Origin: Dehalococcoidia bacterium
GTDB taxonomy: Bacteria > Chloroflexota > Dehalococcoidia > Lucifugimonadales > UBA3495
Length of the DNA stretch: 60,029 bases
Assembly (NCBI GenBank): GCA_030740155.1
Contig: JASLXV010000062.1
Coordinates: 1-60,029, forward strand
Reading direction: 5' to 3'
Part shown: positions 1-55,899 of the stretch, one piece after another
Layout: each line of letters begins with the position of its first letter
How positions within the stretch are numbered: the first letter of the stretch is position 1
Program-made: the position numbers and the translations under genes
The notes under the pieces: generated by a model
Told to the model about the DNA's origin: nothing
What the model saw: the letters and a program-made list of their open reading frames with translations, nothing else
Databases searched by the model: none

Positions 1-65
1 TGCCTTCCAGCCTCTATTCGAGATAGCTGCGACTCGGGAAGGCAGCGATGTGGTCCTGATAAACG

Positions 66-100
66 AGGCGCCCCCGGACTCTGAAAGCCCGGAGGCGCCT
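66..100 (-). terminator. Probable intrinsic terminator downstream of tmRNA
   Basis: Hairpin aggcgcc(c/t)ccgg...ccggaggcgcct just 3' of the tmRNA on the minus strand, with a short U-rich tail. Confidence 0.5.
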
Positions 101-112
101 GATTCGTGTTCT

Positions 113-468
113 TGGTGGAGACGGGGGAGAGTCGAACTCCCCGTCCAAAAGGTCCCCTGGTCGGATCTACTACAAGCTTGTCCGGTGCTTTAAGTCTCGC
201 CCCTCAGAGCTTCCACCGACAGAATCTCCGAGGTGCCAGCCGATCAATCTTTGGTCGCCCTTTATCGGCATAGGAGCGCCCGCATCCCGGACTCTTGGCG
301 CCTGCACCACCGCATCCGGGACTTGCAGTGGGCAGACGTAGCCGCGATTTAGACGGCTAGTGCAAATTCACGTTCGCCAGTTAATGGCTGCCACCGGTTT
401 AACGAGGCTGATGGCGTCCTCGGCTTGCAATCCGCCACGCGACTCTCCTGTCGAACCCGCGCGTCCCC
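113..468 (-). ncRNA. ssrA: tmRNA; tag peptide (A)GEREFALAV*
   Basis: 5' GGGGACGCGCGGGTTCGACAGG, 3' T-arm and acceptor GGACGGGGAGTTCGACTCTCCCCCGTCTCCACCA; tag ORF 378-349 after TTAACT. Confidence 0.96.
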
Positions 469-3995: not shown

Positions 3996-4994
3996 CTACA
4001 GCTTCAACTCGATGATCTCGAATTGAGACAGGTCGCTGCTTCCCAGTCCCAGCTCCTCGGCATGCTCATGCTGGCGGCGGACTATGGCTTCGTTGGCTGA
4101 AGTGAACGTGCTGTCGTGCTGCTTCATCAGCCGCATGGCGACCACATCGGCGGCGACCATGTCGCCGGTAATGATGAGGCGGTTCACCCCATCGATGATC
4201 TTGGTCTCCGCGCTTCTGGACGGTCCGAAGACCGCCTGCAGGGAGCGCACATCGGTAATGGTGAGTTCCGGGCGCACGGCGGAGGCGAACTCGGCCAGTT
4301 TACGGTCGAAATAGTCGCGGTTATCTTGGAGTGACGCGTGGGCGAGCCAGCGATGGAGGCCATAGACGGACCCGAAGTGGTTCTTGATCGCGCTGGTGAT
4401 CTGCCCAGCGAAGTGGCGCTTGAGGACGGGCAGGTTGATAATGACCGGAGCCTCCTGGAGCTGGCGGGCGATGCGCAAGCGAGGGCCTTCAGTCCTGCGG
4501 ACGCCGGGCTTTCGCAGGCGTTCCAGCATGGGGCTGCCCTCCATCCCAGGGAACCCCACATCAGGGTCCAGGTCTCCGTGCCAGGCGCGGTGCTCAACCA
4601 GGACGTAATGGCCGGCTTCCGGTGCGTGGGAGATCTGAATCTCCGTTCGGGGCAGGTCCGCCGGGTTGTAGATAAGGTCCAACTCGTTTCGGTGGTCCTC
4701 GTGCACCAGGATATGTTCGGCCCCGGCGGCCCGGCAATGGCGGGCCACGGCGCGTATCGTCTCGGGCGCGGTGATAGAGGGAAATGGGTCACGCTGGTTT
4801 GTATTGGGCTTGAGGACGACCTGGCGGTGAGCGCCAATGACGCGGCCCAGGCCGCCGATGGCCTCCAGTCCCGCATCCACCATGGCGTCGATATCCTCTC
4901 CCTCCACGATCACCAGGAGTGGCTTGCCGCCGGTGCCCAGCACCTGGTTGTCCCGGCCGCGCCGGGCCAGCGCGGTCTCCACCACTGTCGCCAT
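3996..4994 (-). CDS. DUF362 domain protein
   Basis: VVLKPN, INLPVLKRH...SAIKNHFG, DMVAAD, LGLG motifs. Confidence 0.85.
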   Translation of the reverse strand: MATVVETALARRGRDNQVLGTGGKPLLVIVEGEDIDAMVDAGLEAIGGLGRVIGAHRQVVLKPNTNQRDPFPSITAPETIRAVARHCRAAGAEHILVHEDHRNELDLIYNPADLPRTEIQISHAPEAGHYVLVEHRAWHGDLDPDVGFPGMEGSPMLERLRKPGVRRTEGPRLRIARQLQEAPVIINLPVLKRHFAGQITSAIKNHFGSVYGLHRWLAHASLQDNRDYFDRKLAEFASAVRPELTITDVRSLQAVFGPSRSAETKIIDGVNRLIITGDMVAADVVAMRLMKQHDSTFTSANEAIVRRQHEHAEELGLGSSDLSQFEIIELKL

Positions 4995-5160: not shown

Positions 5161-6009
5161 ATGGCGTCCGGCACGAAAACAGCGCAGACCACCGAAGCCA
5201 AGCTGGAAGAACTCCACCGCATCCTGGCCGGTATGGGCCGGGTAGCCATCGCCTATTCGGGCGGGGTGGATAGCACCTTTCTGCTGGCGGTGGCGAAAGA
5301 GGTCTTGAAAAGCGGTAACGTTCTGGCGGTGAATGCCGTCAGCCCGGTCTACTCGCAGCGGGAACAGGCCTTCGCCCAAGAGTTCGCCGCCAAACTGGGC
5401 GTGGAGTGCATCTCTTTATCCACCCGGGAGTTGGGGGACGAGCGCTTCGCCGTCAACCGCCCCGACCGGTGCTTCCACTGTAAGTCGGAGCTGTTCGGCC
5501 GGCTACAGGACGTTGCCGCGGAAAGGAAATTCCCATCCATCGCCGACGGAACCACGGCGAGTGATTTGGACGACTTCCGCCCTGGGATGCAGGCGCGAGA
5601 GACCTATGGAGTGCGGAGCCCTCTGCTGGAGGCCGGAATGGCCAAAGAGGAGATTCGCGCACTGTCCCAGGAGATGGGCCTTCCCACGTGGGATAAGCCG
5701 GCCATGGCTTGTCTGGCTTCCCGGTTCCCCTACGGCACCGGCATCACCGTCGAAGCCCTGCGCCAGATCGAAAAGGCGGAGGAGTACCTCTTTGACCGAG
5801 GCTACCGCCAGGTGCGGGTGCGCCACCACGGCCCGATTGCCCGCATCGAAATCATGGCCGACGAGATGGTCCGGCTGCTCGAAGAGGCCCCAAGCGTGGT
5901 GCAGCACCTGAAGAAGCTGGGTTACCGGTACGTGGCGCTGGACCTGCAGGGGTATCGGACCGGCAGCATGAACGAAGACGGAAGCATACCGCTGAGGCCC
6001 TTACAGTGA
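5161..6009 (+). CDS. larE: NPN biosynthesis ATP-dependent sulfur transferase LarE
   Basis: PP-loop AYSGGVDS, RCFHCK, DFRPG, WDKPAMACLASRFPYG, VRVRHHG, GYRTGSMN. Confidence 0.93.
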   Translation: MASGTKTAQTTEAKLEELHRILAGMGRVAIAYSGGVDSTFLLAVAKEVLKSGNVLAVNAVSPVYSQREQAFAQEFAAKLGVECISLSTRELGDERFAVNRPDRCFHCKSELFGRLQDVAAERKFPSIADGTTASDLDDFRPGMQARETYGVRSPLLEAGMAKEEIRALSQEMGLPTWDKPAMACLASRFPYGTGITVEALRQIEKAEEYLFDRGYRQVRVRHHGPIARIEIMADEMVRLLEEAPSVVQHLKKLGYRYVALDLQGYRTGSMNEDGSIPLRPLQ

Positions 6010-6689
6010 CGCCGGCGGACGCTTCGGACCCCGCCGTGGTCGACCTGGGTTATGCCCGGGTAGACGCACAGCGCAGCAAACGCCAGGGCATGCCGGAGGC
6101 GGTCCTCTGCTTGGGCAAGACCCCTTCCCAGGTAGCCGGGATTCTTGAAGTGTTGGTTGAGTCCGAGGGGACCGGTATTGCCACCAAGGCGAACCGCACC
6201 GTTTACCGGGCGGTTCGGACCAAATTCCCCGAAGCTATCTATCACGACACCGCGAAGCTCATTCACGTGGGGAAAGACCTGGCGTCACAGCCCGCCGGTA
6301 TCATCGTCGTATCCGCCGGCACCTCGGACATACCGATGGCCGAGGAGGCGGCGATCACCGCGTCTATCCTGGGGCATCCAGTGGACCGGCTCTTCGACGT
6401 CGGCGTCGCCGGCCTGCAGCGGCTTCTCTCGCAGACCGAGCGCCTCCGGCAAGCTGCGGCGGTGGTGGTGGTGGCGGGTATGGATGGTGCGCTGCCCAGC
6501 GTGGTGGCCGGCCTGGTGGACAAGCCGGTGATCGCCGTACCGACCTCGAACGGATATGGCGCGTCTTTTAAAGGGTTGTCGGCGCTGCTGTCGATGCTGA
6601 ACAGCTGTGTCCCCGGGGTCGCCGTGGTCAACATCGACAACGGTTTCGGAGCAGCCGCGGTGGCCCACCGCATGACTCGGGTCGCCTGA
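6006..6689 (+). CDS. larB: NPN biosynthesis carboxylase/hydrolase LarB
   Basis: SAGTSD, DVGVAGL, VAGMDGALPSVV, VPTSNGYG, SMLNSC, VVNIDNGFGAA; 4-nt overlap with larE. Confidence 0.93.
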   Translation: MTPADASDPAVVDLGYARVDAQRSKRQGMPEAVLCLGKTPSQVAGILEVLVESEGTGIATKANRTVYRAVRTKFPEAIYHDTAKLIHVGKDLASQPAGIIVVSAGTSDIPMAEEAAITASILGHPVDRLFDVGVAGLQRLLSQTERLRQAAAVVVVAGMDGALPSVVAGLVDKPVIAVPTSNGYGASFKGLSALLSMLNSCVPGVAVVNIDNGFGAAAVAHRMTRVA

Positions 6690-6755: not shown

Positions 6756-7291
6756 GGGCGCCCACAAGGGGCGCCCCTACGGGTGCCCTGGACGAACTTG
6801 GACCCTTCCCACCGTGGTTAGCGATTTGTAGGCGCCGACCACGTCGCCCAATGTAGGGGCAACCCTTGTGGTTGCCTCCTGGCCGGGCGGCCCGACGTCC
6901 GCTGTCATGGCCGCGTCGGATTGGGCGCCCACGAGGGGCGCCCCTACGGGTGGCACGGACCATCATGGGCCCTTGATTACCGCGATTGCGGATTCTCTCG
7001 GTCCAGTTCCCAGTGCTGGGGATTATTGACGATGTACTCGCGGATCCGGCCGAGGGACGTTTCGTCGCGAATGACGTGTTCGAAATAGTTTCGTTGCCAT
7101 AACCTGCCCGGAAACGCCTGCCACCCCCTCGTCTTGACGCCGCGCACATATCCCAAAGTGGTTAACGATTTATATGCACCGACCACATCACCCAATGTAG
7201 GGGCAACCCTTGTGGTCGCCCCTTGTCCGGTCGCCCCGACGCCGGTCGTTGTGGGGGTATCAGATTGGGCTCCCACAAGGGGCGCCCCTAG
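6756..7291. repeat. Five GTAG-type REP palindromes (GTAGGGGCRnCCCTyGTGGnnGCCC) at 6756-6780, 6853-6877, 6923-6947, 7197-7221, 7267-7291
   Basis: GTAG tetranucleotide plus imperfect palindrome, arranged as inverted pairs, next to and inside a RAYT. Confidence 0.85.
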
Positions 7292-7564
7292 GGGTGCCGT
7301 CCACACGATGATGCCGTGGATGTGATTTGGCATGACGACGAACGCGTCGACACTAATGCCCAGGAACTGGACCGGCAACTCGTCCCAGACCGCTTGCACC
7401 ATCCGCCCGGCGTCGTTGGGAAACAACTTGCCTTCCACTATCTCGCCAAACAGACACACCCGCCCCTGCGTGCAGATGGTAACAAAATAGGCTCCTGGCC
7501 CCGCGTAATCATACCCGGGAAGGCGGATGGAGCGGCGGTGATGTCGTTCAGGGTCGAAGCTCAC
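6977..7564 (-). mobile_element. REP-associated tyrosine transposase (RAYT, IS200/Y1 HUH family)
   Basis: RRSIRLPGYDY, YFVTICT, FVVMPNHIHGI (HUH), WQRNYFEHVIR, YIVNNP. Confidence 0.92.
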
Positions 7565-9402
7565 GCCCCGGCGAACGCCAGGTCCAACTCCTCAAGCTTC
7601 TCTTTGGTGGGCCTGCCGTCTTCGCCCCACCCCCGAAGCTGCCGGTACTCCCGGAGCTGCTCTTCGACGTTGGGCGCTCGCTTGGCGGTGCCGCCTTCGC
7701 CCAGGGGCTCCAGAAGCCGCGCCGGGAGCCGGTCATCGGCGCCATCCAGGCTACAACGCAGGTTGTACATTCGTTGCAGATTGACGATGCGCTCGCCGGC
7801 CCGCAAGACCTCCGCCGAATTGTAGTCGAAACCGGTGACCGAGGACAGCGCCTCCGCCAGGTGCAGCGGCGCCAGCGTCAGGCCCGGATAGAGGCACATG
7901 ACCATGGAACCGAGAACACTGGTCAGGTCTTGGCCCACCTTGGCCGTCAGCCCCTTCCCGGAGCGGTCGAACCGGTCCTGGCGGTAAACCACCCCAGCCT
8001 CGGGCATGGAGGAGTACATCTCGAAAATGGATGGCGCTCCGGTGAGGTCGCAGGCCGGGTTCGGGCCGGTGGCGTAGGTTGCGCCCAGGCTGAAGTAAGC
8101 CCGGGGGTCGTACATCGGTATCTCCAACCCCTTTACGTGCATGGAAAAGGCTTCGCTGGCGGCCCCGACCTTTTTCGAGGTCGCTCTGACCCCCTGACTC
8201 AGCAGCTCGCCGATGCCCTCACAGGTAGCGATTTTCTCGACAAGCTCGATGATGGTGTCAGAATTGCCCCAGGTCAGGTCCAGGCCGTCCACGTCTCGCG
8301 CAGTGAAGAAGCCACGCTCCTGGGCCTCCATGGCGAAGGCAATAACGGCGCCCACCGATACCGTGTCGAGGCCGGCTCTCTTGCACAGATCATCGGCCTT
8401 GCAGACCGACTCCAGGTTGTCGTTCAAGCATAGCGAGCCCAGCGCGGCCAGGGTTTCGTACTCCGGCCCGGCCCCCTCCATCTTGTGCTTTCCCCCGGCT
8501 ATCTTGACCCAGCGGGTGCAGCGGACGGGACAGTTCAAGCACGATTCGTGGGGCTGCAGGATGGTGTCGGCCATCTTCTTGCCGCCCAGGTTGATGCACC
8601 CGTCTTTCCAGAGGCCCACGCGCCAGTTCTGCGTCGGAACCGCGCCCTTTTGCCACCCGGTGTCCATGTGGAAAGCGGTACCCCATTTGAAGAGCATGGC
8701 CATGCGCCGGTTGCCGCCGATGATCTGGCCAATGCGTCCGGCTACCTGATTGAATCCGGTTTCCTCTGCGATCGGGACCGCCTTGGCGCCCTTGACGGCG
8801 ATGGCCTTCAGGTTTTTGGAGCCCATCACCGCCCCGATGCCGCCTCGGCCAACGGCCCTGCCGCCGTCACCCACCATGCAGGCCAGAGGGACTTTGCCCT
8901 CACCCGCCGGGCCGATACCCACCACCTGGGCTTCGGGGCCGGCGAACTGGTCCCGGATCTTCTCCTCCAGGGCGATGGCATCGGCCCCCCAGAGCCCGGT
9001 GGCGTCCTTGATCTCGGCGCCACGGTCGCTGACGTCCAGCCATACCGGCTTGAGTGAGGTCCCTTCGACAATGATGCCGTCAAAACCGCTTTGTTTCAGC
9101 GATGCTCCCCAGTGACCGGCGAGGCTGTCATGGGTCAGCAGACCCGTCAGGGGCGACCTGGTGACCACGGCAAAGCCGCCTGAGGCCGGAAAAGCCGTTC
9201 CCACCAGGGGGCCGGCCATGAAGAGGAGCTTGTTGTCCGGGCCGAGGGGGTCGGCGCTGGCGGGCACCTCGTCAAATAGGATACGGGTGCCCAGGCCGAT
9301 GCCGCCGATATACTGCCGGGCCATGGTCTCATCCAGGGGCTCTTCTGCCACCCGGCCCGAACTCAAGTTTACCCGGAGTAGTTTGCCTTGGTATCCACCC
9401 AC
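7561..9402 (-). CDS. Aldehyde:ferredoxin oxidoreductase family (W/Mo-bis-pterin), divergent
   Basis: GRGGIGAVMGSKNLKAI, CLNCPVRC, GPEYET, GLDTVS, HVKGLEIPMYDPR, DDRLPARL, RGW. Confidence 0.92.
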   Translation of the reverse strand: MGGYQGKLLRVNLSSGRVAEEPLDETMARQYIGGIGLGTRILFDEVPASADPLGPDNKLLFMAGPLVGTAFPASGGFAVVTRSPLTGLLTHDSLAGHWGASLKQSGFDGIIVEGTSLKPVWLDVSDRGAEIKDATGLWGADAIALEEKIRDQFAGPEAQVVGIGPAGEGKVPLACMVGDGGRAVGRGGIGAVMGSKNLKAIAVKGAKAVPIAEETGFNQVAGRIGQIIGGNRRMAMLFKWGTAFHMDTGWQKGAVPTQNWRVGLWKDGCINLGGKKMADTILQPHESCLNCPVRCTRWVKIAGGKHKMEGAGPEYETLAALGSLCLNDNLESVCKADDLCKRAGLDTVSVGAVIAFAMEAQERGFFTARDVDGLDLTWGNSDTIIELVEKIATCEGIGELLSQGVRATSKKVGAASEAFSMHVKGLEIPMYDPRAYFSLGATYATGPNPACDLTGAPSIFEMYSSMPEAGVVYRQDRFDRSGKGLTAKVGQDLTSVLGSMVMCLYPGLTLAPLHLAEALSSVTGFDYNSAEVLRAGERIVNLQRMYNLRCSLDGADDRLPARLLEPLGEGGTAKRAPNVEEQLREYRQLRGWGEDGRPTKEKLEELDLAFAGA

Positions 9403-9406
9403 GTGA

Positions 9407-10720
9407 TCACCTCAATGTAGCGAGATCGACATTCTCCGTCCGCTTGAATCCCCGCTCCGGGACGACAGGGTCTTTCTCGAAGAGCTTGGCAAACCGCTGC
9501 CGCACTGGACGAGGGTCAAACTGGAAACGGTAATATGTGGAGTCGGGCACCGTTGCCTCCAGAATCTCGTAGTCGGTGGTTCCCAGGCCATTGCGCACGG
9601 CGGAGTTGATTTGCAGGCTGTCGCTGGCGCCCACCGCCGAGGAGATGGCGGCGAACTTGGGAACGCCGGGGGCCAGAACGCCGGCTTCGTGGGCCTTGGA
9701 CCCAACAACCCCCGGAGAGTCGTTGACCATGTCCCGGCAGGCGGTGTCGATGGCTACGGGGTCGCGGCTGGCGAAGACGCCGATGTTGGGAACGAAGGCC
9801 CGGTCGCTCCACATGACACAGTCGCACCCGGGGGAGGCGTCGATGGCCATGTTGATGAAGCCCACCTTATCGGAGCCCACCGTTTTAACCACTGCCAGGG
9901 CACCGTCTGCCATGGCGGCGGCGGCGCCATCGATGTTGCCCAACGGCCGGGTCAACACCCCACAGGTAACTACGTTGTTGCACGCCTGGCAGTTGATGCA
10001 GGCCTCGGCGCGCCAGTCTATCGTGTGGTCGGTGACGTTGAACAGCCCCAAGGGGCAGCAGTCTTCACAGATCTGCCACTGGGCACAGGCGTGGCCGATG
10101 CACAGGTGGGGGTTGAACTCCGAGAGGTGCAGTCCCCACTTGGGGTGCTTCGACTGGTGCACGTTGAGCTTGCCCCGCTTTGACTGCCCGCCGATGCCCA
10201 GGTTCTTGATGGCCCCGCCAAACACACCGGTCATGTGGCCCTTGAAATGGCTGAGAACGATAACAACGTCGGCCATTGCCAAAGCCTTGGCGATGTAGGT
10301 CTCTTTGATAACCGTGCCTTCGGGCAGGTCGACGAGTTGGTCGTCGGTGCCGAAGAAGCCATCGGCGACGATGAAAGGGCAACCCAACGTTGCGGAGCTG
10401 TACCCGTTCCGCTCCGCCGTAAGCAGCTCGTCCATGGCGGTCACCCTTCCCGCGAAAGGGTTGTAGGTCAGAGTCGTGGTGTCGCATACGAAGGGCCGGC
10501 CACCCAGGCTCTTGATCTTGTCCGCCAGGGCTCGCGCGTAGACCGGCCGGAGATAGCCGGTGTTGTTGTATTCCCCGCAATGAAGCTTGATGGCCACGAC
10601 ATCGTAGGGTTTTATCATCTCACCCAGTCCGGCGGCGTCGAAGACGGCCAGCATCTTTGCCACCAGGGTGCTGTCGGGGCCTGTTGAGCGGTCGCTCATG
10701 AAATAGACCTTAGATGCCAT
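9407..10720 (-). CDS. DUF362 protein with ferredoxin-like Fe-S insert
   Basis: VAIKLHCGE, SHFKGH...GGAIKNLG, Cys clusters (CIGHACAQWQICEDCCP; CINCQAC), PGCDC, DPVAID. Confidence 0.9.
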   Translation of the reverse strand: MASKVYFMSDRSTGPDSTLVAKMLAVFDAAGLGEMIKPYDVVAIKLHCGEYNNTGYLRPVYARALADKIKSLGGRPFVCDTTTLTYNPFAGRVTAMDELLTAERNGYSSATLGCPFIVADGFFGTDDQLVDLPEGTVIKETYIAKALAMADVVIVLSHFKGHMTGVFGGAIKNLGIGGQSKRGKLNVHQSKHPKWGLHLSEFNPHLCIGHACAQWQICEDCCPLGLFNVTDHTIDWRAEACINCQACNNVVTCGVLTRPLGNIDGAAAAMADGALAVVKTVGSDKVGFINMAIDASPGCDCVMWSDRAFVPNIGVFASRDPVAIDTACRDMVNDSPGVVGSKAHEAGVLAPGVPKFAAISSAVGASDSLQINSAVRNGLGTTDYEILEATVPDSTYYRFQFDPRPVRQRFAKLFEKDPVVPERGFKRTENVDLATLR

Positions 10721-11247
10721 TACAAGACCTCCGTGGGAAAATATTGCTCACCGTTGGTCGAATTCGGAAATGGTTCCTAGTTGCAAGCTAGACTATACAA
10801 CTTTTGCACGCGCAGTTCCAGTACCGGCCTGCCGCCGCGTTGACACTCCCGGCTCGCCGAAGCTATGCTGGCCCCGGGCCGGAGGCAGCCGTAACTCGGC
10901 AGCCCCGGGGTGACTACCCCTGACCTTCCCCCTTGCGAAAGAGGAGAGTGAGAGGGGGTCTCCGCACCAGAGCACCCTGAAGATAGTTGTGGTCGTCGCT
11001 CCGAGAATGCTGCTCTGAGCGAGGGCTTCGGCGGCACATGATCGGAGAGGATAGCATACGCCGGTCCGCCGCTGGCAACCGTCACGCAGATTAACGCACG
11101 TCGGTCCCGTTCGAGATGGCGACAACTTTGGTTCGGTGGCGCCTCCTCGGCGTCTGATCGGCTCGCGAGAGGCGGGAGGGCCCGGGTCTTGGCTCGAACT
11201 CCGCCTGTTTTAAGATAGGAATTCAATTGTATGAAGAGGAGTGACAC

Positions 11248-12078
11248 ATGTTCTACGACACTTCACGGTTCCAAGAGAAGCTCGAAGGTGGCCGAGACGA
11301 CCGGACCCACGGGATCGTGGTGATCACCCCATCGGAGTCCCGCCGGCTCCTCGCCAAGGGTGTGCTGGCGCTGCCGGAGGTGCAACGAAGCTTGAAGGAC
11401 GGACTCTTCGTGATCTGCAGGGGAATCACCACGGCTTTCGTCGCGGAAGAGGTGCTCGGCGACACCCTAAACAAGCCCAACTGCACCGCCGGAATAGTCA
11501 CCGATGGCCGGCTGGCGTCCACGCTGCCGGAGGAGGGGCAGGGCCCCTGGGTGTTCCGGGACGGCGACCTGACGCCGGACGGCTTCGACCAGGCCCTAAA
11601 GGACCTGACGGCGACGGATGTTGTGGTGAAGGGCGTGAACGCGGTAGACGCCGAGGGGAACGTGGGAGTAATCGCCGCCAATTGGTTCGGTGGGACCATC
11701 GGCGCCGTGTGGCCGACGGTAACGGCCCGGGGAACCAACTTCGTCATTCCGGTCGGCCTCGAAAAGCTCATTCCCTCGGTCAATGAGGCAGTCCAGAAGT
11801 GCGGGCAAGGAATGTTCAAGTATGTTATGGGGGCCAAGATCGGCCTGATGCCGGTGATGCAAGGGCTCGTGGTGACGGAGATCGAGGCCTTGGCGATGTT
11901 AACCGGCGTCAGCGCCACCCACGTCGCCTCGGGGGGCGTAGGCGGCTCCGAGGGCAGCGTTATCATCAGCCTGGAGGGCAGCGATGAAACGGTGAAGCGG
12001 GCCTTCGAGCTGGTGAAGAGCATCAAGGGCGAGCCGCCGGTCCCGCAACCCAACCTGCTGCCTGCGCTTATCTCGTAG
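11248..12078 (+). CDS. Conserved hypothetical protein
   Basis: GAGGAG RBS, GC3-rich codons, motifs ITPSESRRLLAKG, GITTAFVAEE, KGVNAVD, PVGLEKL, ASGGVGGSEG. Confidence 0.8.
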   Translation: MFYDTSRFQEKLEGGRDDRTHGIVVITPSESRRLLAKGVLALPEVQRSLKDGLFVICRGITTAFVAEEVLGDTLNKPNCTAGIVTDGRLASTLPEEGQGPWVFRDGDLTPDGFDQALKDLTATDVVVKGVNAVDAEGNVGVIAANWFGGTIGAVWPTVTARGTNFVIPVGLEKLIPSVNEAVQKCGQGMFKYVMGAKIGLMPVMQGLVVTEIEALAMLTGVSATHVASGGVGGSEGSVIISLEGSDETVKRAFELVKSIKGEPPVPQPNLLPALIS

Positions 12079-20981: not shown

Positions 20982-22253
20982 CTAGGCCGACCGGCCGGCC
21001 ATCTGGGGCTTGGCCCACGCCATCGACGAGACCGGCATCTGGAGTGGCGCGTAGGGGTACAGGGCCACTCTGGTGCCGGGCCCATGCCGGCGCTCCAAAT
21101 CCGCCAACACTTCGTCCCAGGTCCGGTGCCAGTCGACCTTGTCCGGCGGGCCGATCATTTCCCGGTCGTTCCAGGATAGGTTGGGGGCAAAGACGATGGT
21201 TCGGTTGGCCTTCCCGAGGTTGCCGGCTATACGACGGGGAGTGTAGCCCCGGCCGCCGTAGTCGGTTCCGAAGCGGCCGGCGTACTGGTGCAGACACTGT
21301 CCATCGTAGGAGTGGGAGATTAGCACCACGTCGCCGCCCTCCTTCAAGGAGCTGGGCACCACCCAGGTGGCCCGGTTGGTCTGGCACTCGTCCGGGTAGC
21401 TGTTCGCCACCACCACGTCGGCTTCCTCCACGGTATCGGTGACGTATGTCTTGCGCGCCACCTCCACGCCGGCCCGGTGCTCGGCCACGAAGTCACCCGC
21501 GAACATCGCGACCACCTCGCGGCGGTTGTTCAGTACCGAGTCAACCTTGAAGTGCAGGCCGGCCAGGCGCGTCGCTTCTTCGATGTCCAGCCGGAACACG
21601 TTGTCGTCCACCCGGCCCAGGGCGGAGTTCTCCGTGCTGTGCTTGTGGTGGTGGTTGACGGTCTCGATGCCGGCGATGCCGGGCAGGACCAACTTCCCGC
21701 CACCGCCGAAGCCCGCGTGGGGGTGGGGGAAGAGGCTGCCTATGCCCAGCCGCAGGTCGCAGGAGGCAAATTCCCGGTTTACCCACATGGGTGTTCCCCG
21801 GCTGGTGGTCCCGACGTTGACCAGGTTCTCCCAGATGCAATGGTTGTAAACGGGGAACCGCTCCACTATATCCCGGCCCAGTTTGGCCACCAGCTCGGGA
21901 AAGAGCAGGGGACGATGGGTGCCGGGGGCGCACACGAAACGTATTTGATCGTCGGTGATGCCGCCGGCGTGCAGCTCCTCCAGCACGAAGGGAACGATGC
22001 GGTAAGCCGGTGTGGGTTTGGGTATGTCGTCGAAGAGGATGCACACCTGCTTCTTGCCCTTGGCGAGTTCGCTGAGCCGGGGTGATCCGATGGGGGACTG
22101 CAGTGCCTGACGCATCTCCTCGTCGGAAAGGGCCGGCTGGTCGTGGCCGGCCATCAGGCACTCCGTCACCTGCCAGTTGTCGGGAAAAGTCAGTCCGATC
22201 TCATTATCCCCGTAAAAAGCATTGACTCGAACCTTGAATTCTTGCGGTGCCAT
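20982..22253 (-). CDS. larA: Lactate racemase (LarA) superfamily nickel-pincer enzyme
   Basis: SPIGSPRL, FDDIPKPTP, PGTHR, GTTSRGTP, PHPHAGFGGGGKLVLPG, NHHH; substrate unknown. Confidence 0.9.
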   Translation of the reverse strand: MAPQEFKVRVNAFYGDNEIGLTFPDNWQVTECLMAGHDQPALSDEEMRQALQSPIGSPRLSELAKGKKQVCILFDDIPKPTPAYRIVPFVLEELHAGGITDDQIRFVCAPGTHRPLLFPELVAKLGRDIVERFPVYNHCIWENLVNVGTTSRGTPMWVNREFASCDLRLGIGSLFPHPHAGFGGGGKLVLPGIAGIETVNHHHKHSTENSALGRVDDNVFRLDIEEATRLAGLHFKVDSVLNNRREVVAMFAGDFVAEHRAGVEVARKTYVTDTVEEADVVVANSYPDECQTNRATWVVPSSLKEGGDVVLISHSYDGQCLHQYAGRFGTDYGGRGYTPRRIAGNLGKANRTIVFAPNLSWNDREMIGPPDKVDWHRTWDEVLADLERRHGPGTRVALYPYAPLQMPVSSMAWAKPQMAGRSA

Positions 22254-22433
22254 TCTCACCCCTCCAAATTGGACGTACTGGCTCGACCGGTGCCCCACCG
22301 GTGTGGCAAGGAAGCTGAGATCCCTGAGCCCTGCATCCGGCGACGGAGATACATGGGCACTTCGATTCTAGCCGCCGGTGGCGCCAAACCAAGCCGCCGG
22401 TGGCGCCAGCCGGTGCCGCTGCCCGGTACGCGC

Positions 22434-52397: not shown

Positions 52398-54857
52398 TCA
52401 GCCCAGGCCGTGCTCCACCCTTTTTATGTGATGAAGCTGCTGCTCTTCGCTCAGCATCACGAAGTAGGCGGACCAGCCCCCCATGCGAACTCGCAGGTGC
52501 CGGTACTTCTCCGGCTCTTTCATGGCCTGTTTCAGCTCTTCAACGTCGGTCACGGTCAGGGTGAGCATGTTGCCGCCCATGTCGACGAACGCCTTGATCA
52601 GTCCGGCCAGACGTTGGGTGCCGGCTTCACCCGTCAGGCTGTTGGACGACAGGCGCAGGTCCAGGGGTGCGCCGGTCGCCAGGTCCGCGACGCGCATCTT
52701 CAGGTAGGAATTGATTGCCGAGGTGGGCCCGGAAACGTCCGTTCCGCAAACGGGAGAAAAGTTGGACGCTATCACCTCTCCGTGGTGACGGCCGTCCGGC
52801 GTGGCCCCCACCTCCTTGCCGATCATGGCGTACCAGGAGAAGGTGCCCACTGCGGGCGGGAAGATCAACTCGGGATACCGCGCCGCATGCTGCCGGGTCC
52901 GTTCCACGAAGTAGTCCATCATCTCCACGCCGATGCTGTCCGCGTCGCCGTTGTCGTTGGCGAACTTGGGGGCGCGGGCAATCAGGCGCCGGCGCAGGTT
53001 CTCATAACCATCCCAGTCGGCGGCCGTGGCGGCCATCAGTTCGTCCATAGTGACGCTCTGGTCCTCGAACACCAGCTTCTTGATGGCGGCCATGGCGTCT
53101 ATCGCGTTGGCGACGGCTTCGCCCATGACGTGCCAGATGGTGTAGCGGGGGCCGCCCCGGATGACGTCTTTCTCGTTCTCCAGGCAATCGAGGGTGAGTG
53201 CCGATAGGAACGGATTGGAGCTGTACTTTCCGTGGTTGCTGTGCTCCAGCGTACCGTTCTCGATAGCGCCGCCGATGTAGTCGATGCCCAAACCCAACTG
53301 GGTGTCCAACTGGTTCTTCCAGGCGCCCATCAGCTCTGAAAAGCCCTTGAAATCCCGGGGGTCGCCGGTGTCCGGCCCCAACTGGCCGTGAACGCTGGAA
53401 TTTCCCCGGTTCAGAGCCATCTCAACGAAGAGCAGGAAGTTAATCCCGCGAATCAGCTCCTGATCGGACTTGCCCTCGATCATGGTCTCCCAGCAGTTGG
53501 AGTTGGCGTAGCCGCGGGCGTCCTCCCGGGGCACTCCCAGGTCGATATATGCCTGAATGATGGTGTCGTCGTTGTTGACGAAGGGCATGCCGCCGCCGCT
53601 CTTCAAGACCTCCGCCACCCTGGTGACCAGCTTGCCCGGCGAGCCCTGGTGCAGCCGCACGGTGACGACCGGGCTGGTGAAGGCGAACTTTTCGAGGGCG
53701 TTCAGGCACAGATGGGTGATCTCGTTGGTGCCGTCTGACCCATCGGGCCGGATGCCGCTCAGGAGGATGTTCTGGCCGAAGTGGTTGATCGCGTCGGCCG
53801 CGTCGGTGGCGTAGCGGAACCGCTGCCGGTGGCCGACCAGGTATTTCGTCGGGCCCTTGTCCACTACCAGGCCGGCCGCCTTGTCGGAGGACCCGGTTAA
53901 CGGGCTCGACAGCTTTGCTCCGTTGTACCCGCCGGTATCTGGGTCACCATCGGTTTGGTCGACGTAGAAGTTCTCGCGGCAGATCTGGGCCCGGTCGTTG
54001 AACCGCAGCCAGAGGCAGTCCATGAGTTCTTGGGCCTCGTCGAGGGTGATCGTCCCCGCGTCCAGGTCTCTCTCCAACGCCCCGTGGAGGAACTGGTCCA
54101 TGCGGCCACAGGAGATGTTGGTCTGGGTGGAAAAGAACGCGTAGTGGATGAACCAGAAGGATTGGACCGCCTCATGGAACGTGCGGGCGGAGTGTTCGGG
54201 AACCCAGCGGCAGACCTCGGCGATCTTGCGAAGCTCGGCACTTCGCTCGGGGGTCCCGGCGCCGGTGGAAAGCTCCTCGGCCAGATCGGCGTATCGATGG
54301 GCCATGGCGACGACCGCGCCACTTTGCAGGCGCATCGCCTCGAGCCAGGTCAGCGTCTCGTCGCGCTCCGCCGACTGGGGACGGCCGGCCACATCGGCGG
54401 CCTTGCGGTCGATTCCGGCAATGATCCCGGAGAGTCCTTGGTCCAGCACTTCGTAGTAGTAGGGCGTCTTGTGCCCGAGCTGGGCGGAGATCCGCGAGCC
54501 CTCGGCGCCGGCCCTGTCGTGTTCTTCTTCGGTCGCGTAGCTGGGCATCTGTGTCCGGACGATGATGCCGTCCAGTACGGTGTTGCCGACGATCAGGTCA
54601 TCTTCTTCGATGGTGATGGGCATTCGCCGGAGCGCCATCTCGAATGCTTTGGCGCGGCGCACTTCCAGGGGCAGATGCGCGGTGGAGTCATCGATGATAG
54701 AGAGGCCGGACCCCCAGCTGATCTGCTTGCGGGTCATCCGCTCTTGGACCACGGCCAAGAGCCGGCCGGCCTTGCTGCCCCGCGAGCGAAGTCCGGCGTC
54801 CATCGCCATCAGCGTCCGGTCTGTCTTCCGGGCATCCCTAACCGATGTAGTTGCCAT
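52398..54857 (-). CDS. Glycyl radical enzyme (PFL-like superfamily), unassigned class
   Basis: ARTFHEAVQSFWF, GRMDQFL, Cys loop NSNCWE, PKFAND, ATPDGR, Gly loop RVRMGGWSAYF. Confidence 0.93.
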   Translation of the reverse strand: MATTSVRDARKTDRTLMAMDAGLRSRGSKAGRLLAVVQERMTRKQISWGSGLSIIDDSTAHLPLEVRRAKAFEMALRRMPITIEEDDLIVGNTVLDGIIVRTQMPSYATEEEHDRAGAEGSRISAQLGHKTPYYYEVLDQGLSGIIAGIDRKAADVAGRPQSAERDETLTWLEAMRLQSGAVVAMAHRYADLAEELSTGAGTPERSAELRKIAEVCRWVPEHSARTFHEAVQSFWFIHYAFFSTQTNISCGRMDQFLHGALERDLDAGTITLDEAQELMDCLWLRFNDRAQICRENFYVDQTDGDPDTGGYNGAKLSSPLTGSSDKAAGLVVDKGPTKYLVGHRQRFRYATDAADAINHFGQNILLSGIRPDGSDGTNEITHLCLNALEKFAFTSPVVTVRLHQGSPGKLVTRVAEVLKSGGGMPFVNNDDTIIQAYIDLGVPREDARGYANSNCWETMIEGKSDQELIRGINFLLFVEMALNRGNSSVHGQLGPDTGDPRDFKGFSELMGAWKNQLDTQLGLGIDYIGGAIENGTLEHSNHGKYSSNPFLSALTLDCLENEKDVIRGGPRYTIWHVMGEAVANAIDAMAAIKKLVFEDQSVTMDELMAATAADWDGYENLRRRLIARAPKFANDNGDADSIGVEMMDYFVERTRQHAARYPELIFPPAVGTFSWYAMIGKEVGATPDGRHHGEVIASNFSPVCGTDVSGPTSAINSYLKMRVADLATGAPLDLRLSSNSLTGEAGTQRLAGLIKAFVDMGGNMLTLTVTDVEELKQAMKEPEKYRHLRVRMGGWSAYFVMLSEEQQLHHIKRVEHGLG

Positions 54858-54939
54858 TACGACGGTCTCCTTCTGTAACGAGCGGGTCTGTTTCCATCAA
54901 AAAGCCACTGGTAAATGGTCGTTACGGCCGCTAGGCCGG

Positions 54940-55899
54940 CTATCCGCCTACCTGGACCTGGAGTCCCTCCCGGCGGCACAGGTCCGCCAGGGAGGCCATG
55001 TGTTCCCCGGTCTGAGTCTCTTTGGCCCGGAGCGAGTAGGAGCGGCCGATCCACTCATACTTGGCCCCCGCAGCGCCATTGTAGGGCAAGAGCACGATCC
55101 TGTCGACGCCGATTCCGGCGCCAAATCTGGCGATGGACCGGATTTGCTCCTTGCCGTCGTTTATGCCGGGGATGCACGGCACCCGGATTTGAATCTCGTG
55201 GCCCGAAGCGGCAAGCTGCTCCAGGTTTCGCAGAATCAGGTCGTTGGGCACCCCGGCGTGGCGACGGTGGGAGGCGGAGTCGATGAACTTCAAATCGTAC
55301 AGAAGCAGGTCGGCGACGCTTGCCAGTTCCGCCATCGCCTCCCAGCGGGCGTAGCCGGTGGTCTCCAGCGCGGTGTGGATGCCACGCTCCTTGCAGGCCA
55401 GCAGAAAGTTATAGGAGAACTCCGGCTGCCTTGCGGGCTCACCGCCGCTCAGCGTGACCCCGCCCCCCGAGCTTCGGAAGTAAGGGAGGTCCCGCTCGAC
55501 CTCCAACGCCAGTTCGCCGACTGTGATCGGCGTGCCCGCCAACCTGAGGGCGCCGGGGTAGCACACCTCCACGCACTTTCCGCACGCGGTACATCTGCTA
55601 CGGTCCAGGACCGCCGCTTCCTGTCCTCCGTGCCTGCCGCTGGTCAGCGCACCTTCCGGGCAGACCTCCAGGCACAGCCAGCAGCCGGTACACCGCTGGA
55701 CCTGGTACAGGATATCGGGATGATTGAGCTGGGACTCGGGGCTATGACACCACACGCAGGCCAGCGGGCAGCCCTTCAGGAATACGGCGGTGCGTATTCC
55801 GGGGCCGTCGTGGGAGGCGAATTTGTCGACGTCGAGCAGCAGCCCTTGGATTGTCAGGTCGGCGCTGCGGGAGGCGACGCTCCTCTCAGGGACGGACAT
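54940..55899 (-). CDS. Glycyl-radical activating enzyme (radical SAM with ferredoxin insert)
   Basis: HDGPGIRT, GCPLACVWCHSPE, two CxxCxxCxxxCP-type motifs, GGVTLSGGEP. Confidence 0.95.
   Translation of the reverse strand: MSVPERSVASRSADLTIQGLLLDVDKFASHDGPGIRTAVFLKGCPLACVWCHSPESQLNHPDILYQVQRCTGCWLCLEVCPEGALTSGRHGGQEAAVLDRSRCTACGKCVEVCYPGALRLAGTPITVGELALEVERDLPYFRSSGGGVTLSGGEPARQPEFSYNFLLACKERGIHTALETTGYARWEAMAELASVADLLLYDLKFIDSASHRRHAGVPNDLILRNLEQLAASGHEIQIRVPCIPGINDGKEQIRSIARFGAGIGVDRIVLLPYNGAAGAKYEWIGRSYSLRAKETQTGEHMASLADLCRREGLQVQVGG

Follow-up and report, generated by a model that had tools for sequence, protein, structure and literature searches.

In the 60,029-nucleotide stretch of a Dehalococcoidia genome analysed here (contig JASLXV010000062.1, called the window throughout), a gene for a DUF362 Fe-S protein is followed on the minus strand by a gene for an AOR-family oxidoreductase, and two genes of NPN biosynthesis lie beside the pair. 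The features of the locus are as follows.

5161..6009, plus strand: larE, NPN biosynthesis (TIGR00268, E 3.4e-99, 331 bits against a cut-off of 150)
6006..6689, plus strand: larB, NPN biosynthesis (NF033503, E 7.9e-82, 274 bits against a cut-off of 175)
6977..7564, minus strand: ORF resembling a REP-associated tyrosine transposase (NF047646, E 8.4e-14, below cut-off)
7561..9402, minus strand: AOR-family tungsten/molybdenum pterin oxidoreductase gene, 613 aa, with AFOR_N and AFOR_C
9403..9413, minus strand: junction in the sequence, made up of GAGGTGA (9413-9407, includes the DUF362 stop) and a 4-nt spacer
9407..10720, minus strand: ORF for the DUF362 Fe-S protein, 437 aa, with a predicted LarA-fold core and a ferredoxin-like insert
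9818..9826, minus strand: codons of the C299-D300-C301 motif, invariant in the alignments of close relatives
9935..10147, minus strand: insert, DUF362 residues 192-262, holding two Cys motifs
10157-10159, 10205-10207 and 10235-10237, minus strand: codons of H188, K172 and H162, respectively, the H-x9-K-x15-H triad
10721..11247, no strand assigned: upstream intergenic region in the sequence, 527 nt

The first-pass annotation had the DUF362 gene ending 4 nt before the AOR gene, and this was borne out. The DUF362 stop codon TGA (9409-9407) is followed by the spacer TCAC (9406-9403) and the GTG start codon of the AOR gene (9402-9400), and GAGGTGA at 9413-9407 is a Shine-Dalgarno-like sequence ahead of that start. 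The junction is bridged by RNA-library contigs from two libraries or runs of one study, and DUF362-AOR genes occur in marine metatranscriptome assemblies. The RNA-library contigs end near 10751-10768, which might reflect a start of transcription. No Rfam match at E <= 1 was obtained in the upstream intergenic region, and a consensus scan of the same region gave no minus-strand promoter-like site. Between 3500 and 12500 the only RNA family was one tRNA.

The AOR matched both Pfam domains of its family, AFOR_N with 239 bits (E 4.6e-71) and AFOR_C with 392 bits (E 3.7e-117), and aligned with 1aor over residues 3-609 (E 2.4e-124). C288, C291, C295, C503 and E316 align with C288, C291, C295, C494 and E313 of 1aor and are invariant in 13 paired AORs. 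We take the four Cys to be the [4Fe-4S] ligands and the Glu to be an active-site residue. The position of P. furiosus His448, presumably the active-site His, is occupied by Asp452 in three Chloroflexota AORs (those of the window and of loci L016 and L017) and by His in the other 10/13.

larE lies 1.5 kb past the end of the AOR gene, and larC was found on another contig (C107) of the same genome. The GTG of the transposase-like ORF overlaps the AOR stop codon. This ORF sits where related cassettes have a small protein and an SDR. Neither of these cassette partners was detected in the genome by tblastn (best match 39% identity, partial), and orf276 and the small cassette protein were assigned to no named family in Atlas look-ups.

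The 437-aa protein matched the Pfam DUF362 model PF04015 with 143.7 bits (cut-off 24, E 9.7e-42). Residues 42-328 span profile positions 1-198 of 200, a surplus of about 87 residues over the model. A Cys-rich insert just after H188, as first annotated, is present: nine of the 15 Cys of the protein (207, 212, 218, 221, 222, 241, 244, 247 and 253) are packed into the 47 residues 207-253, and C207 is 19 residues past H188. The insert had also been described as a ferredoxin. Residues 200-256 show a weak likeness to the ferredoxin-like chain 7koe_D (E 0.0044), but no Pfam Fer4 model matched the protein at E <= 0.01. The insert has eight suitably spaced Cys, and its comparison with 1fdn gave E 0.94. 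By analogy with the usual dicluster ferredoxin pattern, we infer that C207, C212, C218 and C253 would form cluster A and that C222, C241, C244 and C247 would form cluster B. DUF362 proteins with the Cys insert number 1016 cluster representatives at E <= 1e-10. No flavin is evident in the DUF362 protein. A search for DUF362-AOR fusions returned none; the two matches among longer proteins were both devoid of AOR domains, which is weak evidence. The literature searched on DUF362 appears to offer nothing on function, and nothing relevant was found under COG2768.

A predicted model of the DUF362 protein (pLDDT 86.7) was compared with known structures. Each of the top 17 Foldseek matches was a LarA-family entry, with E between 4e-7 and 7e-4. 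With VIA-align, 12 LarA-type entries scored Z 15.0-17.5 (11 of them 17.0-17.5), as against 5.9 for the next unrelated fold, and model residues 9..337 superposed on LarA 33..266 with an rmsd of 3.0-3.5 Å over 215-236 residues. On this confident predicted model, the DUF362 core appears to be a LarA-fold domain corresponding to the N-terminal NPN-binding half. Most of the structural alignments stop at LarA residue 266-270. The substrate-binding domain LarA_C was not detected, Pfam reporting only PF04015 at E <= 0.01.

Profile comparison pointed in the same direction. A profile of 125 diverse DUF362 relatives aligned by hhalign with 31 LarA sequences over 154 columns at E 8.2e-4, with a probability of only 24%; the link to LarA was significant only with this diverse profile, narrow-profile comparisons giving E 0.12 and 0.11. 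Within one ungapped block, H162, K172 (in AIKNLG) and H188 (in LNVHQS) were paired with His174, Lys184 and His200 of LarA (numbering counted on 5huq), and the H-x9-K-x15-H spacing is shared by 30/31 LarA sequences. All three residues are kept in 81/81 close relatives and in 118-122/125 distant ones (K172 in 121/125, H188 in 122/125). K172 and H188, picked out earlier as the putative NPN site, are thus in place and paired with the tether and the nickel ligand of LarA. According to the available text of three papers, His174 of LarA is catalytic, Lys184 tethers NPN and His200 is a nickel ligand, and the tethering Lys (Lys184 in L. plantarum LarA) is universally conserved in the LarA superfamily (PMC12611868, PMC11851776, PMC11796402). 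R58 of the DUF362 protein was aligned by hhalign with the Arg of the LarA TRP motif, which is described as binding the substrate carboxylate (PMC11851776). LarA has another catalytic His, His108, and its position is Gly91 in the profile alignment. The counterpart of His108 is probably missing; the loss is not certain because confidence in this part of the alignment is low.

Genes of NPN synthesis are linked to the DUF362 family. Besides larB and larE in the window, LarE or LarB was encoded within 7 kb in 26/80 related loci, in several arrangements, and in 2/5 further genomes larB-larC preceded the cassette at a distance of 2.4-3.4 kb. LarC was present in 12/14 genomes with the DUF362-AOR pair. 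Among Chloroflexota with a DUF362 homologue it was present in 10/12 genomes, as against 62/120 in the whole sample. The corresponding figures in Thermodesulfobacteriota (18/18 against 178/201 overall) were dropped as evidence because LarC is near-universal there.

A LarA-like pocket might nevertheless hold another cofactor or metal than NPN, for example at C299 and C301 with a His, Glu or Asp, and the Fe-S enzyme would still work with the AOR. The invariant C299-D-C301 motif (C299 in 122/125 and C301 in 121/125 diverse relatives) could mark another metal site, and it shares with the invariant K45, H47 and D80 the lack of a LarA counterpart. This explanation also accommodates the absence of one LarA catalytic His and of the LarA C-terminal domain. 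Canonical LarA is found in 12/14 pair-carrying genomes, so the lar genes there need no second user. A search for LarC and the pair without LarA turned up only G132, which gave no Lar_N match, and G128, where the matches were weak; both are MAGs and may be incomplete. Among control genomes, Bacteroides thetaiotaomicron has DUF362 and no LarC. Counting against a pocket for something else, LarC and DUF362 occur together in Synechococcus elongatus and Haloferax volcanii with no Lar_N match. The differing arrangements of nearby lar genes and a tether Lys and nickel-ligand His at LarA spacing in every close relative also argue for NPN. We consider a pocket for something else somewhat unlikely.

The neighbourhoods of 80 related DUF362 loci were surveyed with a reach of 7 kb. 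In 14/80 the next gene downstream, in the same orientation, encodes an AOR, and the same order was found in 5/5 further genomes; this recurrence suggests that the pairing is more than chance. The pairs are spread across Chloroflexota, Nitrospinota and Thermodesulfobacteriota, with unrelated flanks. Conservation of the pairing, which the first-pass annotation had named as a check, holds for one clade in at least three phyla but not for the whole family: in 60/80 loci no AOR gene was found within 7 kb. The commonest neighbour of the related DUF362 genes is an SDR-type epimerase/dehydratase (48/80 loci). Paired AORs share 47-84% identity with the AOR of the window, compared with 28-35% for its 11 paralogues in the genome, and by this measure they form an orthologous group of their own. 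On the tree the AOR link and the second cluster each cost one change. A single change for the AOR link points to one evolutionary event and not to repeated convergence. The idea that the second cluster serves the AOR was rejected as evidence, as the full Cys set is present in 15/15 AOR-linked proteins and in 117-125/125 diverse relatives as well, and each of the two traits costs a single change.

We tentatively propose that the DUF362 protein works as an oxidoreductase with NPN and that its Fe-S clusters wire it to its own AOR. This prediction from sequence and model is possible, though we would not call it probable. NPN made by LarB, LarE and LarC would be attached at K172, and H188 would be the fourth ligand of the nickel. 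Since only H162 stands for the two His of LarA and the LarA substrate half is lacking, the nickel site would move hydride one way only, with no racemisation. The two electrons of the hydride would arrive or depart singly, by way of predicted cluster B first and cluster A next. In hydrogenase the proximal cluster serves the nickel site, which resembles the role proposed for cluster B. The insert would act as the built-in ferredoxin of the paired AOR. In the resulting two-site unit, aldehyde oxidation at the pterin site would drive reduction of a carbonyl or 2-oxoacid by the nickel, or the unit would run in the opposite direction. Aldehyde oxidation is favoured as the electron source because the acid/aldehyde couple (about -580 mV) is far more reducing than the carbonyl/alcohol couple (about -200 mV). 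The full form of the proposal, a ferredoxin-independent Ni-pincer/W machine, is in our judgement doubtful. Here two built-in [4Fe-4S] clusters would connect the nickel site directly to the tungsten enzyme, and carbonyl reduction at nickel would be paid for by oxidising an aldehyde at tungsten, or the other way round.

To our knowledge, known enzymes that feed hydride electrons into Fe-S clusters use flavin. The lack of an evident flavin, the CDC motif, the probable loss of His108, the undetected LarA_C, the low probability of the profile match, the canonical LarA of most pair-carrying genomes, the 60/80 loci without AOR within 7 kb and the single change on the tree all count against the NPN-wired reading.

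As the first-pass annotation had it, the same nickel chemistry could serve a net dehydrogenase whose carbonyl product feeds the AOR. The DUF362 protein would oxidise an alcohol or a hydroxy compound and give the electrons by way of its clusters to free ferredoxin, the AOR then oxidising the aldehyde product with no direct wire. The fold, the triad and the lar genes support this two-step oxidation as much as the favoured reading, and a conserved operon suits consecutive steps of a pathway equally well. Relatives lacking the AOR keep one or two clusters, which implies that the DUF362 family must have other redox partners. However, the pairing of R58 with the LarA Arg points to a 2-hydroxy acid substrate, and the 2-oxo acid formed from it would be no substrate for AOR without a decarboxylase. 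A TPP enzyme was encoded near only 8/80 loci and nowhere in the window. A dedicated, co-evolving AOR group is likewise easier to reconcile with a physical partner than with a shared metabolite. Two-step oxidation through free ferredoxin is unlikely.

If the DUF362 protein were a mere Fe-S electron-transfer subunit or adaptor of the AOR, with no chemistry of its own, the ferredoxin-like insert and the position of the gene directly before that of the AOR would be expected, and other AOR-family enzymes have adjacent Fe-S subunits. A scaffold of 370 residues is well beyond the needs of an electron carrier, however. About 45 non-Cys positions are invariant in its LarA-like core, and three quarters of the relatives surveyed have no AOR within 7 kb. 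We regard this role as quite improbable. That the two genes are plain neighbours, their adjacency lacking functional meaning, would fit the many loci without AOR and the single change on the tree, but is highly improbable given an order and tight spacing kept at about 50% protein identity in three phyla amid unrelated flanks, and a partner AOR that falls in its own orthologous group.

No Fe-S-wired NPN enzyme was found in the literature searched. In the available text, characterised NPN chemistry, that of LarA enzymes and of an AKR-fold transferase, is hydride shuttling without net electron flow (PMC13524815). One study reports larB, larC and larE without larA in about 15% of its genomes, and other NPN users are therefore actively sought (PMC11796402). 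If the NPN-wired reading is true, no enzyme known before the DUF362 protein would have wired NPN into an electron-transfer chain or performed net electron chemistry with it. It would provide an answer to what else uses NPN and would carry organometallic nickel catalysis into electron-transfer-linked redox reactions. The DUF362-AOR pair is a concrete one for testing, with predicted cofactor-holding residues, its own Fe-S wire and a dedicated tungsten-type oxidoreductase. What is new here is the conserved AOR cassette of a DUF362 Fe-S protein.

Among known systems, LarA is closest in fold. DUF362 and LarA are placed in the same Pfam clan, CL0471 (PMC11770544). The LarA-family structures compared (PDB 5huq, 6c1w, 9eia, 6d6z and 9q3k) consist of Lar_N/DUF2088 and LarA_C. 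The DUF362 protein shares with them the predicted N-terminal NPN-binding fold, His-x9-Lys-x15-His, the Arg of the TRP/LRP motif and nearby lar genes. It differs in having neither the C-terminal substrate domain nor, probably, the first catalytic His, and it adds the two-motif Cys insert after the putative nickel-ligand His, the CDC motif and a partner AOR. The first-pass annotation described all characterised NPN enzymes as redox-neutral racemases and epimerases. This is correct for the known LarA enzymes but not for NphT, an AKR-fold NPN-dependent intermolecular hydride transferase reported in Nat Chem in 2026 (PMC13524815). As far as the available text shows, NphT resembles our proposal in using NPN in a non-racemase, in having been found through its lar-gene neighbourhood and in its Lys tether and His ligand; it differs in being a TIM-barrel with no Fe-S that transfers hydride between organic substrates and involves no outside electron carrier (PMC13524815). 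PF04015 or DUF362 was not found in 12 supplementary files of that paper.

The insert shares the pattern C-x4-C-x5-C-x3-C-P ... C-x2-C-x2-C-x5-C with 7koe_D, which is of FixX/EtfX type. The similarity is weak, and 7koe_D is a free subunit whereas the insert lies inside a putative enzyme. Like P. furiosus AOR (1aor), the AOR of the window is full length and keeps the Cys ligands and the equivalent of Glu313. Its PDB relatives include 8c0z, 6x1o and 4z3w, which we take to be AOR-family enzymes with separate Fe-S subunits. An AOR encoded beside an Fe-S protein is common to these systems and the DUF362 cassette. In contrast to them, the Fe-S partner here is a predicted LarA-fold protein with a conserved pocket that resembles an active site.

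Two reverse-strand genes of the window make up the cassette.

9407-10720, - strand, DUF362 gene (ORF call, 437 aa)
7561-9402, - strand, aldehyde oxidoreductase (AOR)-family gene (ORF call, 613 aa), next after the DUF362 gene

The first-pass annotation had described a Cys-rich DUF362 gene with an AOR gene 4 nt downstream, and this was borne out. The 437-aa ORF matches PF04015 (DUF362) with E 9.7e-42. Since residues 42-328 cover a model of 200 positions, the protein carries about 87 extra residues. 9/15 Cys fall within residues 207-253, and this Cys-rich stretch bears a weak likeness to ferredoxin-like proteins (7koe_D, E 0.0044). The 613-aa ORF is a full AOR with AFOR_N and AFOR_C domains (1aor at E 2.4e-124), and alignment to P. 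furiosus AOR revealed that the Cys ligands of the cluster and the counterpart of Glu313 are kept. The P. furiosus His448 position is occupied by Asp452 (window 8047-8049); it is Asp in three Chloroflexota cassette AORs and His in ten from other phyla. Four nucleotides separate the DUF362 stop from the GTG start of the AOR gene, and GAGGTGA overlies the DUF362 stop. The stretch was found in seawater metagenomes and in six runs recorded as RNA. The junction is spanned by contigs in two metatranscriptome runs from the same study (X15 over 9034-9938, X16 over 8599-9521), although a single transcript cannot be proved from contigs. Positions 10786-11400 are empty or nearly empty in both runs.

By the usual dicluster pattern, one cluster is predicted on C222/C241/C244/C247 and a second on C207/C212/C218/C253. 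In 125 diverse relatives, all of these Cys but C253 are kept in 117-125 sequences; C253 is aligned inconsistently among them. In one clade (51/80 tree rows), mostly marine Dehalococcoidia, the second set is partly or wholly lost, 46 rows being without all four. The Cys247 position is Cys in all 15 AOR-linked proteins, and His replaces it in 12/13 two-cluster relatives without an adjoining AOR (L018-L021, L023, L025-L028, L031, L046, L072).

A model of the DUF362 protein built from 26 homologues was confident (pLDDT 86.7, pTM 0.85). Foldseek ranks 1-17 were all LarA-family structures, LarA being the lactate racemase that uses the nickel-pincer nucleotide (NPN). VIA-align gave Z 17.0-17.5 to 11 LarA-family entries, 15.0 to the related 4nar and 5.9 to the next fold, and placed model residues 9..337 on LarA 33..266, the NPN-binding half. 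The link by sequence is weak yet now measurable. Narrow profiles of the two families did not match significantly (E 0.12 and 0.11), whereas a profile of 125 diverse DUF362 relatives matched 31 LarA sequences with E 8.2e-4 over 154 columns. In the latter comparison a single ungapped block matches H162, K172 and H188 to LarA His174, Lys184 and His200 (5huq numbering). The H-x9-K-x15-H spacing was found by pattern in 30/31 LarA sequences and 77/81 DUF362 relatives; the remaining four still have the three residues in the alignment. R58 is aligned to the LarA Arg. In the available text of three papers (PMC12611868, PMC11851776, PMC11796402), the universally conserved Lys of LarA tethers NPN via a thioamide, a His completes the square-planar nickel site, two His are catalytic and an Arg binds the substrate carboxylate. 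According to PMC11770544, one Pfam clan contains both DUF362 and DUF2088. Two further LarA features were looked for in the DUF362 protein: the first catalytic His aligns, with low confidence at that point, with Gly91, and the C-terminal domain was not detected. For these reasons the protein is a relative of LarA in fold that keeps the cofactor-holding residues and half of the racemase machinery, and is not classed as a LarA family member.

Of the NPN biosynthesis genes, the source genome carries larE and larB in the window and larC on contig C107; its single canonical larA is at window 20982-22298. In the window, larB and larE lie beyond the AOR gene, 0.9-1.5 kb further on and on the opposite strand. 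12/14 other genomes with the pair contain LarC. A strong LarA match is likewise present in 12/14, so the lar genes of those genomes are not orphaned. In a Chloroflexota sample LarC occurs in 10/12 genomes with a homologue vs 62/120 overall. In a set of 14 control genomes, LarC and DUF362 occur together without a Lar_N match in Synechococcus elongatus and Haloferax volcanii, and DUF362 occurs without LarC in Bacteroides thetaiotaomicron.

At two sites of the source genome, DUF362 genes are close to lar genes. In the window a second, insert-free DUF362 gene (3996-4994, - strand, 332 aa, PF04015 E 5.9e-28) is divergent from and adjoins larE-larB. In its product the His at K-10 is kept and another His lies at K+15, and its top NCBIfam match, below cut-off, is the cyanobacterial family Npun_F2552. 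A third DUF362 gene at a contig start lies 2.3 kb from larC (C107:30-320 with C107:2584-3723) and has a near-identical copy at C25:126812-127429. Distant homologues (32-33% identity) at G002:C205:23568-24716 and G015:C98:1204-2358, from two genomes in which no LarC was found, are possible selenoproteins, with one or two TGA codons in frame. In P0124 (788 aa) the fusion of HTH and MLTR_LBD domains to an Fe-S DUF362 homologue of 36% identity suggests that the DUF362 fold has been used to build a regulator.

We tentatively propose, as a possible reading, that an NPN-bearing DUF362 protein is wired through its built-in clusters to AOR, coupling two reactions in one complex. NPN would be bound at the predicted site K172/H188. 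With H162 as the sole acid/base, hydride transfer would be one-way, without racemisation. The clusters would receive electrons one at a time and act as a private ferredoxin of the cassette AOR, and aldehyde oxidation would be coupled to carbonyl reduction inside the complex. It is rather unlikely that the LarA-like pocket is occupied by something other than NPN, a reading favoured by the C299-D-C301 motif, which is invariant and unexplained, and by the fact that most of these genomes have LarA. The first-pass annotation envisaged a net dehydrogenase whose carbonyl product feeds AOR; this relay, with two oxidative steps and free ferredoxin as acceptor, we judge unlikely. It is improbable that the DUF362 protein is a mere electron-transfer subunit.

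The pairing picked out in the first-pass annotation proved to be conserved. Among the best 80 of 517 confirmed DUF362 relatives in a species-level genome collection, AOR lies immediately downstream on the same strand at 14/80 loci and within 7 kb at 20/80. LarE is within 7 kb at 19/80, LarB at 8/80 and either at 26/80. The commonest neighbour is an NAD-type epimerase/dehydratase (SDR) of about 290 aa (48/80), often preceded by a protein of about 100 aa without known family. Of 201 Thermodesulfobacteriota genomes sampled separately, six have close homologues, one being locus L070. The other 5/5 have the order DUF362, AOR, small protein, then SDR in the three with long enough contigs; in 2/5, larB-larC lies 2.4-3.4 kb upstream, behind regulatory genes. 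Cassette flanks differ between loci and are unrelated. Paired AORs share 47-54% identity with the window AOR (84% in the nearest relative), against only 28-35% between the window AOR and its 11 paralogues in the source genome. In a quickly built maximum-likelihood tree with 80 sequences (fragment L055 left out), 15 AOR-linked proteins and two unlinked ones form one side of a well-supported branch, so the AOR link was gained or lost once. With this order recurring between unrelated flanks, chance neighbourhood is highly improbable.

The SDR and small protein of related cassettes were not found in a search of the source genome, which has a REP-type transposase ORF in their place after AOR. This REP-associated tyrosine transposase-like ORF (6977-7564, - strand) begins on the AOR stop codon, and the intergenic region upstream of the DUF362 gene contains a GC-rich palindrome (10870-10905) that looks REP-like. 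Elsewhere the proteins of about 100 aa are encoded between the DUF362 gene, or its AOR, and SDR (L022, L024, L029, L032, L034, L035, L037, L040, L050, L053, L054, L070, L126-L131); three representatives have V-(I/L)-x-T or T-V-L-T at the C terminus. Divergent from the DUF362 gene, 11248-12078 (+ strand) encodes a 276-aa conserved hypothetical protein without Pfam family. Its counterpart in L016, the nearest relative, has the same position and is 87% identical. Atlas offers a confident structure model of the protein, together with unnamed clusters that come from Chloroflexota, Thermodesulfobacteriota and Bathyarchaeota. The 3.6-Mb source genome has twelve AOR-family matches, one with an in-frame TAG, and a glycyl-radical enzyme with radical-SAM activase (52398-55899, - strand). 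The many AORs and the glycyl-radical enzyme point to anaerobic life, despite the occurrence of the DNA in seawater metagenomes.

A literature search found no paper on DUF362 function. New here are a two-gene DUF362-AOR cassette kept across phyla, an AOR group dedicated to it, its association with lar genes, seen in two phyla, and the probable absence from the DUF362 protein of one of LarA's catalytic His. The NPN literature, in the available text of PMC13524815, gives racemisation and epimerisation as the only LarA-family reactions. NphT, an AKR-fold NPN enzyme described in 2026 (PMC13524815), moves hydride between substrates and lacks Fe-S clusters.
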